From a virus: 64,000 nucleotides of DNA. The translations under genes were made by a program, and so were the position numbers. The number at the start of each line of letters is the position of its first letter. Within the stretch, counting starts at the first letter, position 1. The notes under the pieces were generated by a model. It had not been told where the DNA came from. It searched no databases and saw nothing but the letters and a program-made list of their open reading frames with translations. The DNA lies in IMG/VR virus record IMGVR_UViG_3300015371_000008, positions 1-64,000 of that record. One strand, given 5' to 3'. This document shows positions 4,579 to 30,145 of the stretch, one piece after another.

Positions 4579-4716
4579 CGCTGTGTGTCGATGATTGTTC
4601 GAAGGTGTTTCGATCCGTCCAACCCCCCGGCGCCACCCCCGGCGCGCACGGCATCATAGACACACACCCGATTTCCGATCCCGGCAGAGCGAACCGGGAA
4701 CCACCAGGAGACCCCC

Positions 4717-5310
4717 ATGACCATGGCCAGCGACAGCGGCAAGCAGCCCGGCATTCTGATGGCCATCGGCCACTACCTGGACCCGGTATGGCCCCCCGCC
4801 ATGGTGGCGTCCGGCGTAGCGTCCACCCTCATCCCCTCCGGCTCCGCACTGTCGTGGACATTCAGCGCCGCCTACTTCGCCGTCTTCTTCGGCGCCCTGG
4901 CCTGCGACCTCTTCGTCCACATGGGGAACCTATGCGAGCGGTGCATCCGAGCCATCCCCCTGGATCCACAGGCCGCCATCGAACGCGACCGCATGTGGTT
5001 GAAGCTCTTCCACCGAACCTCCAGCCAGATCTGGGTGCACATCCGGTCCGTCCGTGTTCCGGTACCGAACAAACTCCTCGCCCTCATGCTGCTCGGAACG
5101 GCCGTCCTTACCGCGATCCGGCTCACCTTCGACCCCGGCGAGCAGGCGCTGAAGTTCGTCGCCCTGCTCACATGGACCACCCCTCTTGCCAGCATTTTCT
5201 GGGCAACCTACCGGCACAACCGGCTTCAGCCATGGTGCCCGTTCTGCCCACGTGACGACGGCGACGACAGGGTGGAGGCTCCGGAACCTGACCCGTCGAT
5301 CAGCAGTTAG
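4717..5310 (+). CDS. membrane protein with His/Cys motifs
   Basis: AGGAG SD, TM helices, HxxxLCERC and [11 protein letters not shown]. Confidence 0.75.
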
Positions 5311-5947
5311 CCCGCGACGGACCCCCGGAACCCCTTCCAGTTGCTTTACCGGGTATCCTCAGCGTCGGTCGGCTGGGCCCTCGCCAGTCGGAATCCAGGA
5401 ACGAGCGTGACTCCACCGGCCCATGCTGCCCCTGATATCGCGATCCCAGACCTGGGCTTCCGTACGGCCGGGCGGCAGGCGACGACATCCGCATGAAGCA
5501 GAGCTGACCCACCTTCATCCCCGGGTGCAGCAGGATCGGCAGGGCGGCCACGTTCGACAGCTCCAGGGTGATGCGGCCGGTGAAGCCGGGGTCGATGAAT
5601 CCGGCCGTGGAATGGGTCAGCAGCCCCAACCGGCCGAGCGACGATTTCCCCTCCAGGCGGGCGGCCAGGTCGTCGGGCAGCGTCACCTCCTCCATGGTGG
5701 AGGCCAGCACGAATTCGCCCGGGTGCAGCACGAACGGCTGACCGTTGCCGACGCGCACCAGCCTGGTCAGATCAGGTTGGTCGGTCGCCGGGTCGATGGC
5801 CGGGTGCCGGTGGGTCTCGAACACCCGGAACAACCGGCTCAGCCGAACATCCACACTCGCCGGTTGGATCATGGCCGGGTCGTACGGGTCGATCCCGAGT
5901 GCGCCCGTATCCAGGCACATCTTGATGTCGGCATCCGACAGCAGCAC
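5300..5947 (-). CDS. dcd: dCTP deaminase
   Basis: [45 protein letters not shown]. Confidence 0.96.
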
Positions 5948-5964
5948 AGCTTCCCCTCGATCTA

Positions 5965-6441
5965 TCAGCGTGCCGGTAGCGGCGGCACGGCCTGCTGCGG
6001 CACGAACCATGACGGCCGCCGCCCGCCCGGGTTGCGCATCCACTCCGGCCGTCGCGCCGCCCGGCCCTGCATCGCGCCGACCACCCGGAAGGTCGGAGGG
6101 TCGGCGATGACCAGCACGTACCAGCGGTCTTCCGGGTCGTTGTCTCGGACGATCAGGCAGCCGTCGGCGCGGGGGGTGGCCCGGATCTCCCAGGCGCGGC
6201 CCGCGTCCGGCTTGCCGTGGAAGGTGTTGACGGAGCCGTCCCAGTACAGCGACCGCACCTTGCAGAATGCCCGCTCCGCGCACGCCCCGTAAATCTCGTC
6301 GGCCAGACGCTCCATCCAGGAGCGCGGGCTGCCGGTGGATTGGTGCGGGTCCAGGTTCTGCAACCCGGAGGTGGCGAACCGGAGGAGGCCGACATGGGCG
6401 GCGCCCAGGAACTCGTACCAGTTCAGCCGGACCTCGCTCAC
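5965..6441 (-). CDS. hypothetical protein, possible PD-(D/E)XK-like fold
   Basis: GACAE...PDAG...WEIRAT pattern. Confidence 0.6.
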
Positions 6442-13543: not shown

Positions 13544-13612
13544 AGCCGCCCCCCGGAATCGAACCGGGCCTACCCCCTTACAAGGGGGGCGTCGCATCCA
13601 TGGCGCGGCGGC
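13544..13612 (-). tRNA. tRNA-Thr(TGT)
   Basis: Loop CTTGTAA; weak D arm. Confidence 0.75.
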
Positions 13613-13620
13613 AGACGGAA

Positions 13621-13712
13621 GAGGGTGGCGACGGAAAGGATTCTGCAGCCAAACCGCCCAACCAGCCCGGCGGTCTCCTTCCCGTTCTTCTGTGGCTGTC
13701 CACGCCACCCCC
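13621..13712 (-). ncRNA. pseudoknotted structured RNA, copy 2
   Basis: Covarying stems with 13841-13932; conserved GTGGACAGCCNCAGAAG and GCCGGGCTGGTTGGGCG. Confidence 0.7.
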
Positions 13713-13715
13713 GTG

Positions 13716-13835
13716 TGGACCCGGCGGGATTCGAACCCGCATCTCCGGCTCTCCCTATGACGCACACCGCCCCCGGACGGAGGTGGCCACCTCGTATCCG
13801 GATCGCGCGGTCACGCCCGATTGAGTTACGGGCCC
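13716..13835 (-). ncRNA. tRNA-like RNA with G3:U70 acceptor and no canonical anticodon arm
   Basis: GGGCCCG/CGGGTCC-A, perfect T arm, long internal hairpin. Confidence 0.6.
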
Positions 13836-13840
13836 TGGCA

Positions 13841-13932
13841 GATGATGGCGACGAGGGGGACAAAGCCTCCAAAGCGCCCAACCAGCCCGGCGCGCTCCCT
13901 CTCGTCCTTCTGCGGCTGTCCACGCCACCACC
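13841..13932 (-). ncRNA. pseudoknotted structured RNA, copy 1
   Basis: See copy 2; G:U pairs support the minus strand. Confidence 0.7.
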
Positions 13933-13936
13933 TGAG

Positions 13937-14019
13937 CTGTCGGGCGGAGAATCGAACTCCGGCCGCCCCTCGCGCGAGGAGAACGACCCTGCCACACGTC
14001 TCAACGACGCGACCCGACA
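13937..14019 (-). ncRNA. tRNA-like RNA (acceptor and T arm, aberrant core)
   Basis: TGTCGGG/CCCGACA; CGGAG-TTCGATT-CTCCG. Confidence 0.55.
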
Positions 14020-14098
14020 CCGTGACGGTTCCTCCGGATCACCTCGGGAGCAGCCGACAAGCCCGAGAGGGCGGGAGCGACCCTATTCGGTACCCTTC

Positions 14099-14194
14099 CG
14101 TCGCGAGCCGGTGCGGACTCGAACCGCCGTTGACCGTCACCGGCCGTCCCCACTCGCGACGCGGGGACGGTCGGCCGCCGGAGTCGAACCGGCA
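14099..14194 (-). ncRNA. double T-loop pseudoknot RNA
   Basis: Two GTTCGA T-loop hairpins; 9-bp loop pairing CGTCGCGAG/CTCGCGACG. Confidence 0.55.
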
Positions 14195-14203
14195 TACCCA
14201 ATG

Positions 14204-28541: not shown

Positions 28542-29744
28542 TCACGCCCTGGCCTGCACGACGACGCGGTAGACGGCGGAGGAGGCGGAGTTGGCTGAGG
28601 TCAGGGAGATGTTGTTGGTGTCCACCACGATCTCGTCCATGTAGACGCGGGCGCCGCCGGTGTTCTCGTACACGAACACCTGGACGTCCTTGGTCCCCAG
28701 GTTGTGGGTGATATTGAGGGCGCTGCCGCCGGTCAGCGCGCCGACGTCGGCGGCGTAGGCGGTGACGGCGACCAGGTTGGTACGGGCGGCCGACGCGCTG
28801 GTGGCGTTGGTGCCGCCCTTGCTGAGGGGTACCAGGCCCACGGTGATGTCGTTCGAGTTCACCGTCAGGCTGCCGTCGGCGGCCACGACGTCGAACGTCG
28901 AACCGGTCAGGGTCAGACCGGCCCCGGCGACGTAGGTGGTGCCGGAGGTCGTGTAGACGGTCCACGTCTGCGTCCACGAGCCTGGCGAGCCTGACGGGGT
29001 GGCCGTCTGGATGTACTGGCCGCCCGCGTAGGTGCCCTCGGCTACGGCGACGAGGGTGCCGTCCAGGATCTCCCCGGTGGCGTCGGCGTCGGGAGCGCGG
29101 GTGGCGGCGGAGCCGGACCCGTTGAAGACGTAGATGCCGTTCTGGGTGCCGGTCGTCTGCCCGGCGGCCAGGAATCGGTCGCCGCTGGTCAGGGTGACGC
29201 CGTCCACGGTCGTGCCGGGGCCGGACAGGGTGACGTTGGATTGGGTGGCCACCCTGACGGGGTCCTTGACGCCCACGATCCCGGCCCGCGCATCGTCAAC
29301 GTACTGTTTGTTGGCGGCGTCGGTGCCGGTGCTGGGCGCCAACAGGTTGGTGATCTTCTGGGAGTTGAGGGATACCGACGCCGTCGGCGCCGCCATCTGG
29401 TCCAGGCGGGACGTACGAACCTGCGTGTCGAAGTCGCTGATCGTGGACGCGGTCTGAGTGCCGGTGTGGTTGGCGCGGGCCAGCGGGTCGGTGGCCAGTT
29501 TGGACAAGGCGATGGCGGCGCCGGAGGCGACCTTGGCGTTGGTGATCGTGTCGTCGGGGATGTCCCCGCCATCCATGCGGACCCAGGATGTGCCGTTGTA
29601 GTACTTGTCCACCGGCGGCGTCAGAGACGTGTCGGTCCACATCTGGCCGGTGACCGGGCTGCTCGGCGCAGTGCCGGACGCTTCCGGCGTCAGCCCCTTG
29701 ACCGGAATCTTGGACGTGTCGATCGGCGCCAAAAACTTCGGCAT
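28542..29744 (-). CDS. head/tail fibre-like protein
   Basis: DAANKQYVD, VRVAT...LSG...VDGVTL...QNGIYV. Confidence 0.85.
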   Translation of the reverse strand: MPKFLAPIDTSKIPVKGLTPEASGTAPSSPVTGQMWTDTSLTPPVDKYYNGTSWVRMDGGDIPDDTITNAKVASGAAIALSKLATDPLARANHTGTQTASTISDFDTQVRTSRLDQMAAPTASVSLNSQKITNLLAPSTGTDAANKQYVDDARAGIVGVKDPVRVATQSNVTLSGPGTTVDGVTLTSGDRFLAAGQTTGTQNGIYVFNGSGSAATRAPDADATGEILDGTLVAVAEGTYAGGQYIQTATPSGSPGSWTQTWTVYTTSGTTYVAGAGLTLTGSTFDVVAADGSLTVNSNDITVGLVPLSKGGTNATSASAARTNLVAVTAYAADVGALTGGSALNITHNLGTKDVQVFVYENTGGARVYMDEIVVDTNNISLTSANSASSAVYRVVVQARA

Positions 29745-29752
29745 CCTGCCCC

Positions 29753-30145
29753 CTACGAGGTGAGGTCGAGTTGGCCAGCCATGGGGAAGGCCCACTCGAC
29801 GCGGACTTGTGTGGGGGTGGGATAGGAGACGTCGCCCTCAATGAGGACTCCGCCGGTATCGGTAGCGATCACGTTGGGGGTGATGGGGATCGTGTGGGTG
29901 ACCTGCCACACCGCCAGCGGGGAGGCGAAGACGTAGGTCTGCTGTATCGCTCCGCCGGGAGGTCCTGCCGGACCGGTAGGCCCGGCAGGACCCTGCGGCC
30001 CGGTCGTGCCGGGCGGCCCCTGCACGCCCGGCATGGTGAGTTCCAGGGCGACGTCAGGGCCGCCGTCAACGGTGACGGTCGTCTGAGAGTCGATCTCGAC
30101 CAGAATGGCGCCCGGCGCCTCGACGACCTCCAGCAGGATCGTCAC
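29753..30145 (-). CDS. collagen-like virion protein
   Basis: GxP repeats; fibre-operon context. Confidence 0.8.
   Translation of the reverse strand: MTILLEVVEAPGAILVEIDSQTTVTVDGGPDVALELTMPGVQGPPGTTGPQGPAGPTGPAGPPGGAIQQTYVFASPLAVWQVTHTIPITPNVIATDTGGVLIEGDVSYPTPTQVRVEWAFPMAGQLDLTS

Follow-up and report, generated by a model that had tools for sequence, protein, structure and literature searches.

A compact structured RNA present as two copies in the tRNA array of an uncultured rhizosphere phage, and its relatives in other phages

In the tRNA array of an uncultured rhizosphere phage, two closely similar segments alternate with tRNA-like bodies, and the question raised by this locus is what kind of RNA the two segments specify. 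The window analysed here, 64 kb in length, is the first part of an 89-kb record in IMG/VR (about 62% complete, 66% GC), the DNA of which recurs in rhizosphere and soil metagenomes. ARAGORN identified 37 tRNA genes in the window, all of them between 7.2 and 20.7 kb and on the minus strand; with the Rfam tRNA model, 29 genes were recovered, and neither method called either of the two segments. An original prediction, made from the letters of the DNA, held that the segments are copies of a pseudoknotted RNA sharing conserved unpaired and loop motifs and differing by compensatory changes in the stems, that this is a new ribozyme or aptamer-like RNA, and that it is excised by tRNA-processing enzymes; it proposed a comparison with Rfam and a covariance-model search for homologues.

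A repeat search of the window revealed a direct repeat, a single two-copy family of 96 nt located at 13617-13712 and 13837-13932 with 78% identity. The covariance model described below placed 89-nt copies (model positions 1-89) at 13842-13930 (copy A, 82.2 bits) and 13622-13710 (copy B, 90.4 bits), both on the minus strand, and found no third copy in the whole 89-kb record. The two copies are thus real, and the motifs UGGACAGCCNCAGAAG and CCGGGCUGGUUGGGCG, which they had been said to share, each have two exact occurrences in the 64 kb, without mismatch and both at the copies. Read along the minus strand, the order is a tRNA-like body, copy A, a second tRNA-like body, copy B and tRNA-Thr, as originally stated. 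The body upstream of copy A (13938-14019), which was read by eye and received no call from ARAGORN or Rfam, has a 7-bp acceptor stem (UGUCGGG/CCCGACA) and a T arm (CGGAG-UUCGAUU-CUCCG), with no anticodon loop. The body between the copies (13716-13835) reached 31.5 bits with the Rfam tRNA model, against a gathering score of 29, and was not called by ARAGORN; it consists of the acceptor stem and the T arm only, with a 69-nt insert replacing the D/anticodon region. The tRNA-Thr(tgt) called by ARAGORN (13545-13614) begins 7 nt after copy B, and all of these elements are on the minus strand. A single metatranscriptome shares words with the region; its coverage extends over 14023-14202 plus part of a T arm, and the copies lie outside it.

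The fold of the element is a three-way junction composed of a closing stem P1 of 7 bp, a mini-hairpin of 1-2 bp with an 8-nt loop (loop 1), and a P2-P3 arm carrying a 10-nt loop (loop 2). In copy A, the 5′ and 3′ strands of P1 are at 13924-13930 and 13843-13849, respectively, and the helix extends to 10 bp over 13837-13932. Loop 1, GGACAGCC, is at 13914-13921 with its closing pair at 13923/13912, and the P2-P3 arm spans 13851-13905, with the P2 strands at 13896-13905 (5′) and 13851-13860 (3′), the P3 strands at 13889-13895 (5′) and 13872-13878 (3′), loop 2, GGGCUGGUUG, at 13879-13888 atop P3, and a linker bulge of 11 nt at 13861-13871; an invariant bulged C at 13850 adjoins the arm. In copy B, P1 is formed by 13704-13710 (5′) and 13623-13629 (3′), with loop 1, GGACAGCC, at 13694-13701 and loop 2, GGGCUGGUUG, at 13659-13668; the single-sequence fold of this copy gave z = -3.34. 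Pairwise alignment of the copies bore out the compensatory stem changes, namely A-U to G-C and G-C to A-U in P2, and G-C to C-G in P3. Two features that had gone unmentioned in the prediction were a further change, U-A to G-C, in the extended P1, and a single A.C mismatch in P2 of copy A. CAGCC in loop 1 can pair with GGCUG in loop 2 in both copies, as had been proposed.

Relatives of the two copies were sought in IMG/VR. The first scan with a 15-base motif gave about 116 matches, of which 3 were real and the rest were chance; on the 3 contigs concerned, both motifs were present at the same spacing, with stems that differed yet were complementary. Combined motif patterns then yielded about 45 members. 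An alignment of 31 sequences, nearly gapless because the length of the element is almost constant, was the basis of the covariance model R1, which in 680 kb of phage DNA gave 47.9-96.9 bits to members and 22.5 bits or less to everything else. The search for homologues thus yielded a family of about 52 members in soil and actinobacterial phages, among IMG/VR contigs and cultured phages. Five cultured phages carry the element, i.e., Microbacterium phages WaterT and LeeroyJenkins, Micrococcus phage Kurnik, and Curtobacterium phages Commonplace and Nonagon, in each case in a gap with no annotated feature; they came to light when matches to blastn queries with other members (E up to 10) were scored with the covariance model, and the window copies themselves had no match in cultured phages by blastn at E up to 1e-3. 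One provirus record, 91% complete, also has the element. Each complete phage genome contains one copy, and the GC content of the member loci ranges from 43 to 74%. No copy was found in 154 Microbacteriaceae-type genomes (3, plus 151 of the Cryobacterium family), which represent the family of hosts that the cultured phages infect, when the top candidates per genome were scored, a result limited to the genomes searched. Similarly, 100 of at least 120 bacterial loci matching a loose pattern were scored with the model and proved to be chance matches, the best having 22 bits. As far as searched, within about 250 bacterial genomes or loci, the family is restricted to phages.

No known family accounted for the element. 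With Rfam 15 at gathering score, neither copy was matched in a search of the whole window, and in fifteen member loci the same threshold detected tRNAs only. Relaxing the search to E up to 10 for three divergent members produced chance matches to miRNA and snoRNA models, none recurring among members. Literature searching, which included motif strings, retrieved no description; a list of 8,495 IMG/VR candidates (PMC10690425), not comparable by sequence, may hold the family unnamed. Resemblances to the 23S L11-binding region, SRP Alu, Y RNA/YrlA and T-loop motifs were considered, and no Rfam match supports any of them. It is almost certain that the two copies represent a family of compact phage RNAs, about 89 nt long, that had not been catalogued before and is new with respect to Rfam 15 and, as far as it can be searched, the literature. 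The prediction of a new structured RNA was supported, given a family of this size, heavy covariation among its relatives and the lack of an Rfam match.

Evidence for the fold came from an alignment of 47 sequences, in which 91.2% of the pair cells were paired and 27 of the 31 pairs had changes on both sides. The covariation score was 0.63, compared to 0.18 in shuffled alignments, and none of 500 shuffles reached the observed values; in controls with slid pairing, the paired fraction dropped to 32-52% in all cases. P2 (10 bp) was 96.5% paired with double changes in all 10 pairs, P3 (5-7 bp) was 90% paired with double changes in all 7, and P1 (7 bp) was 81% paired. The closing pair of the mini-hairpin covaried strongly, being G-C in 27, C-G in 16 and G-U in 1 of 46 members, and a weaker neighbouring pair helps to close the 8-nt loop. 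Since the 5′ segment holds this strongly covarying pair, the junction is a three-way one formed by P1, the mini-hairpin and the P2-P3 arm; the original prediction, right about a structured RNA with a pseudoknot, was mistaken in regarding this segment as unpaired. Extending P1 by the column of the mini-hairpin closing pair was rejected, as the would-be partner is an invariant C. The frequency of G-U pairs, with U-G at the closing pair of P3 in 19 of 46 members, shows that the transcribed strand is the strand as read.

The alignment also revealed where the element is constant and where it is free, 38 of 46 members being 88-90 nt long in all. In the 3′ strand, P2 runs directly into P1 save for one invariant bulged C; where P2 meets P3, there are 0-2 nt in the 5′ strand and, in the 3′ strand, a bulge of about 11 nt and of free sequence, the latter measuring 10-12 nt in 40 of 46 members and containing an extra hairpin in two members, one of them L246. 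About 20 nucleotides in the junction and loops are near-invariant. A12, C13, A23, G24, G48, G49 and C81, together with the G-C pair of P1 adjoining the junction, are invariant in all members, including the two divergent loop types (types 2 and 3) described below; G11, A14, C16 and G45 do not vary among the 46 sequences of the alignment but differ in type 3. The A-U pair atop P2 is near-invariant (44/46), and at the base of P2 there is a covarying A-U pair, replaced by G-C twice and by C-G once. In the folded molecule, P1 stacks end to end on P2 with the one bulged C between the 3′ strands, and P3 probably folds back along P2, which would cluster A12, A23, G24, G49 and the bulged C at the junction.

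The pairing between the two loops deserves separate consideration. In most members (type 1), loop 1 has CAGCC and loop 2 has GGCUG, never varying, and such constancy by itself provides no evidence for pairing. In type 2, found in Kurnik, WaterT, LeeroyJenkins and the provirus, the loops are CACCU/AGGUG, with two pairs changed on both sides relative to type 1; the loops of WaterT and LeeroyJenkins have one mismatch each. In type 3, found in the Curtobacterium phages, the loops are CCAGC/GCUGG, which can be read as three changed pairs or as a one-base register shift in both loops. The original loop pairing is hence kept in three versions across the family, and the conservation of five base pairs in three sequence versions supports the pseudoknot. 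That the loops change together also argues against an outside partner of constant sequence fixing each of them. GACAGCC is complementary to 7 nt of the conserved 16S segment around position 1055; the idea that the loops are an antisense or mimic of a conserved host RNA was set aside, since types 2 and 3 have both loops altered in concert. Neither loop is anti-SD, and both are near-constant.

Covariation of this kind fits pairing within one molecule and pairing between two equally well. We favour the former, in which P3 would be folded back on P2, since a linker that is free in sequence but has a fixed minimum length has the character of a hinge. Pairing between molecules would make the element a self-assembling RNA, forming dimers or rings in the manner of the phi29 prohead RNA or the cages of ROOL and GOLLD, which are likewise found near phage tRNAs. 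The complementary, covarying loops do sit on different arms of a three-way junction, as in the phi29 prohead RNA, and fixed arm lengths would suit a defined oligomer; moreover, if P3 stacks on P2, the loops would probably be about 17 bp apart and unable to meet in one molecule. Against this, the 11-nt bulge where P2 meets P3 is hinge-like, being free in sequence with a fixed minimum length, and it tolerates an inserted hairpin in L246, the carriers are actinophages of the siphovirus type with ordinary terminases (e.g., WaterT gene 22), and the Rfam model of the phi29 pRNA (RF00044) gave no match. Self-assembly was thus considered very unlikely.

Relation to tRNAs was the next point on which the locus could be compared with its relatives. 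About one-third of the members are situated in tRNA arrays with a tRNA 0-7 nt away on one or both sides, the tRNA-abutting members being those of the window, L134, L161, L162, L201, L250 and L276. In L276, L250 and L134 the element begins directly after the discriminator base of a tRNA, and in L276, L250 and L162 it extends up to the first base of the following tRNA or stops 1 nt short of it; with such ends, RNase Z and RNase P would release a helix-closed molecule of about 89 nt. The predicted excision by tRNA-processing enzymes fits these array members with their short spacers, but it does not extend to the about two-thirds of the family with no nearby tRNA, where the preceding feature is the stop codon of an ORF, a site resembling a promoter, or a terminator. 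The anticodon-less tRNA-like bodies near the copies in the window fit a role as processing handles, which we offer as a suggestion. It was also noticed that aberrant tRNA-like elements adjoin the copies in L035 and L159.

Occupation of tRNA-sized slots in arrays might be taken to mean that the element is itself a degenerate tRNA, a functionless processing spacer, or a chance or selfish duplication. P1 has 7 bp like an acceptor stem, its 3′ strand continues into P2 as an acceptor continues into the T stem, and tRNA-like bodies devoid of the anticodon arm adjoin the element. This closing stem is, however, the only tRNA-like part: the GTTCRANYC motif and a T loop are absent, ARAGORN and the Rfam tRNA model match neither copy, and two thirds of the members are far from any tRNA. 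In addition, about 20 conserved nucleotides and a conserved length, in loci that range over 43-74% GC, show that the fold itself is under selection, and the family-wide covariation comes near to refuting a relic, which we therefore regard as extremely improbable.

Outside the arrays, P1 begins 2-8 nt past an ORF stop codon in about 20 loci, and a perfect hairpin of -21 to -38 kcal/mol follows P1 at 0-11 nt in about 10 further loci, with weaker ones in 3-4 others, so that strong hairpins at this distance accompany about a further third of the members; in L249 the downstream hairpin has a 9-U tail. The WaterT element is 17 nt past an intrinsic terminator and 27 nt before the start codon of gene 14, and some members are 14-27 nt ahead of a start codon. 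In several loci (Kurnik, Commonplace and L280), the next gene begins so near the RNA or its hairpin that no promoter fits in between, and the RNA may therefore remain in the mRNA and act in cis. A cis-acting role could be that of a factor-independent processive antiterminator, like the put RNA of HK022 or the EAR element of Bacillus, allowing read-through of the hairpins and tRNA genes that follow. The absence of a linked protein gene and the range of GC content would be expected if the partner were RNA polymerase. Elements directly before strong hairpins, followed by genes with no promoter room (Kurnik, Commonplace or Nonagon, L280, L128), and elements that are promoter-proximal (WaterT, and probably L287, L119 and L255) are consistent with this, as are the two copies in the window, HK022 having two put sites, putL and putR. 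Nevertheless, tRNAs in the arrays are 0-1 nt away, so that processing would quickly sever the RNA from the polymerase, the L249 element precedes a canonical terminator at a seemingly genuine operon end, and no similarity to put RNA was found with Rfam at E up to 10. We consider antitermination quite unlikely.

The genes around the element gave no indication of a dedicated partner. All-against-all BLAST of 1,202 ORFs from 43 loci (6 kb on each side) revealed gene families in common only within small sets of related phages, and Pfam and PHROGs searches with about 30 flanking ORFs found no family in common. The flanking ORFs are unrelated and include an HNH endonuclease twice, an ArdC-like anti-restriction protein, Lsr2, a DNA-binding protein, an endolysin and many with no family; the HNH gene is downstream in 2 loci only. 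Complementarity of the bulge to 120 nt of either flank showed no excess (mean z about 0), and the possibility that the bulge guides the RNA to flanking sequence was rejected on this ground.

Taken together, the lack of a shared neighbour gene, a bulge not complementary to the flanks, the span of 43-74% GC and the single copy per complete genome point to autonomy. Our leading reading, held tentatively, is that the element is an autonomous folded RNA module that acts in trans and is not a regulator of a particular gene. Such an RNA would be transcribed within early or tRNA operons of the phage. In arrays, as in the window, it would be released by RNase Z and RNase P cuts at the abutting tRNAs or tRNA-like bodies; elsewhere, it may be bounded by the terminator-like hairpin 0-11 nt downstream, by a promoter just upstream or by other cuts. 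The folded RNA would then bind, and thereby titrate or mimic, a factor, or a small ligand, shared by many hosts and not encoded beside it.

What the junction itself does bears on this. The invariant purines round a bulged pyrimidine fit a ribozyme site or a ligand pocket equally well. It is possible, if rather doubtful, that the family constitutes a new RNA class that is either a self-cleaving ribozyme or a free-standing aptamer expressed in bulk from early or tRNA operons and binding a small molecule; in both cases, a catalytic or binding pocket would be located at the three-way junction and built by the loop-loop contact.

Regarded as a new small self-cleaving ribozyme, the element would cut polycistronic phage transcripts, tRNA arrays and spacers between ORFs, with an active site formed at the junction by A12, A23, G24, G49 and the bulged C81. 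Its size is fitting, as are the near-invariant nucleotides in the junction and loops and the pseudoknot, and it has no gene association, being found in varied same-strand intergenic contexts, some adjoining tRNAs. Gene-independent placement in varied intergenic regions of phages is typical of hammerhead, twister and theta ribozymes. By analogy, an invariant unpaired C that follows a near-invariant A-U pair and precedes a helix recalls the C17 site of the hammerhead. On the other hand, no known ribozyme model matches at E up to 10, as anticipated in the original prediction, which had not recognised the fold as twister, pistol, hammerhead or HDV/theta; twister, pistol, hatchet and twister-sister all gave no match at this threshold with the three divergent members. 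Hammerhead ribozymes are three-way junctions with the core CUGANGA plus GAAA and an invariant A15.1-U16.1 pair before the cleavage site at H17. In the new element, P1 and the mini-hairpin are joined by (U/G)AAGA, with no CUGANGA between them, the basal A-U pair of P2 covaries to G-C and C-G, and neither RF00008 nor RF00163 matches. HDV-like and theta ribozymes have a nested double pseudoknot in the order P1, P2, P3, P1′, P4, P2′, with P1 cleaved at its 5′ end. The strands of the element run P1, loop 1, P2, P3, loop 2, P3′, P2′, P1′, with no P3 hairpin between pseudoknot strands and no Rfam match. Furthermore, members of the L249 type, which have an ORF on one side and a true terminator on the other, are followed by nothing that could be processed, and by our own estimate few new motifs of such kind prove to be ribozymes. 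A ribozyme is therefore judged unlikely.

An aptamer would be either free of an expression platform, serving as a sponge or sensor of, e.g., a nucleotide signal, or part of a conventional riboswitch. The three-way junction locked by a loop-loop contact resembles that of purine riboswitches, the invariant junction nucleotides and strict length conservation are in keeping with a binding site, and some members are among early or accessory genes (ArdC-like anti-restriction protein, Lsr2, HNH) or at the above-mentioned distance of 14-27 nt before a start codon. Yet the downstream gene is inconsistent, many members are in tRNA arrays or at operon ends with nothing to switch, and inspection by eye found no alternative pairing, of the antiterminator type or otherwise, between the 3′ part of the RNA and the hairpins that follow. 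A conventional riboswitch was rejected, since what lies downstream is tRNAs, hairpins or unrelated ORFs, and no expression platform was recognised; the aptamer reading in either form was rated as very improbable.

New RNA folds that are well supported and combine about 20 invariant nucleotides with a covarying tertiary contact, yet have no protein partner, are rare, and such folds have earlier proved to be ribozymes, aptamers, or unusual RNP or RNA-only assemblies. The present family is spread over many unrelated phages, of Actinomycetota-type and other hosts, and is often located in tRNA arrays, which are poorly understood. As five cultured, easily handled phages carry the element, direct testing is possible. 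The window might also offer a reason for which a phage retains tRNA-like bodies devoid of the anticodon arm, namely as handles for a neighbouring RNA.

Among known systems, T4 provides a precedent for the position of the copies. Its species 1 and 2 RNAs (rnaC and rnaD) are stable small RNAs other than tRNAs that are co-transcribed in the tRNA cluster and freed by tRNA processing. The two copies in the window are likewise non-tRNA RNAs in a phage tRNA cluster, whereas most members of the new family are outside such clusters. Punctuation by tRNA-like structures is known from MALAT1-mascRNA and from mitochondrial transcripts with tRNA punctuation; by analogy, the bodies lacking an anticodon arm in the window could serve solely as handles that define ends for RNase P and RNase Z, although the setting here is a bacteriophage and only a minority of members is concerned. 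Structured antiterminator RNAs such as HK022 put and Bacillus EAR act independently of factors inside operons, ahead of terminators. The new element resembles them as a structured RNA in operons ahead of terminator-like hairpins, and put also has two copies per genome; the tRNA-abutting members, in contrast, would be cut away from the polymerase. Compared with the purine riboswitch aptamer, the element has in common a closing P1, two arms with pairing loops and conserved junction nucleotides, but one of its arms is of 1-2 bp and the other is a bent two-part helix, and it has neither an expression platform nor a consistent downstream gene. The self-cleaving ribozymes of phages (hammerhead, twister, pistol, hatchet and theta) are similar in size, pseudoknotted compact fold, invariant junction, intergenic placement and occasional tRNA neighbours, and they differ in their Rfam models, in the hammerhead core and in the HDV strand topology, none of which is found in the element. 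Finally, the phi29 pRNA is, like the new RNA, a phage-encoded molecule of about 100 nt having a three-way junction, covarying complementary loops and no adjacent partner gene. The loops of pRNA, however, pair between molecules on the prohead of protein-primed podoviruses, whereas the new family is carried by diverse actinophages with ordinary terminases, lies in tRNA arrays, and is present twice in one genome.

In each of the tRNA-like bodies at 13716-13835, 13938-14019 and 14103-14190 in the window array, all on the minus strand, the T arm is canonical and the acceptor stem has 7 bp, and a long GC-rich hairpin or insert replaces the anticodon arm; the last of these bodies was called by ARAGORN as an 88-nt tRNA-Ala(cgc). 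These bodies may have been retained as handles for RNase P and RNase Z and not as decoders. A 180-nt contig from a plant-associated metatranscriptome (run X17) matched window 14023-14202, which comprises the odd "tRNA-Ala" body plus the 80 nt 3′ of it, at approximately 98% identity, a hint that an RNA library contains this portion of the array or its equivalent from a close relative. Odd tRNA-like elements were also noticed adjoining the RNA in further contigs, i.e., a T-arm-like GGGUUCGAAUUCC in L035 (2540-2580, plus strand), for which ARAGORN gave no call, and "tRNAs" of 94-99 nt on the minus strand of L159 (266-359 and 952-1050), one of which had a 4-nt anticodon.

Besides the window, a second genome, L134, carries two copies of the RNA in tandem (4680-4882, plus strand). 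Copy 2 is located within a truncated tRNA 5′ half and is followed by another tRNA 5′ fragment; what was duplicated seems to comprise the RNA together with the start of the following tRNA. As for the window pair, contigs from two independent DNA runs carrying the phage end between the RNA copies (13705-13836). Such breaks are expected when a 78%-identical repeat is assembled, and the join between the copies in the window itself depends on the original assembly.

Elsewhere in the window, a dCTP-deaminase-like gene (5300-6283, minus strand) adjoins the tRNA array. Further from it lies a head-decoration or structural gene (28542-29795, minus strand); no PHROG family was found for most of the large window ORFs.

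In the cultured Curtobacterium phages Commonplace (L439:1569-1604) and Nonagon (L440), a perfect 14-bp hairpin is situated immediately 3′ of the RNA, and the annotated endolysin starts 3 nt beyond the hairpin end. The sole SD-like sequence, AGGGG, lies within the 3′ arm of this hairpin; therefore, translation or transcription of the endolysin gene in these two phages may depend on hairpin opening or read-through.
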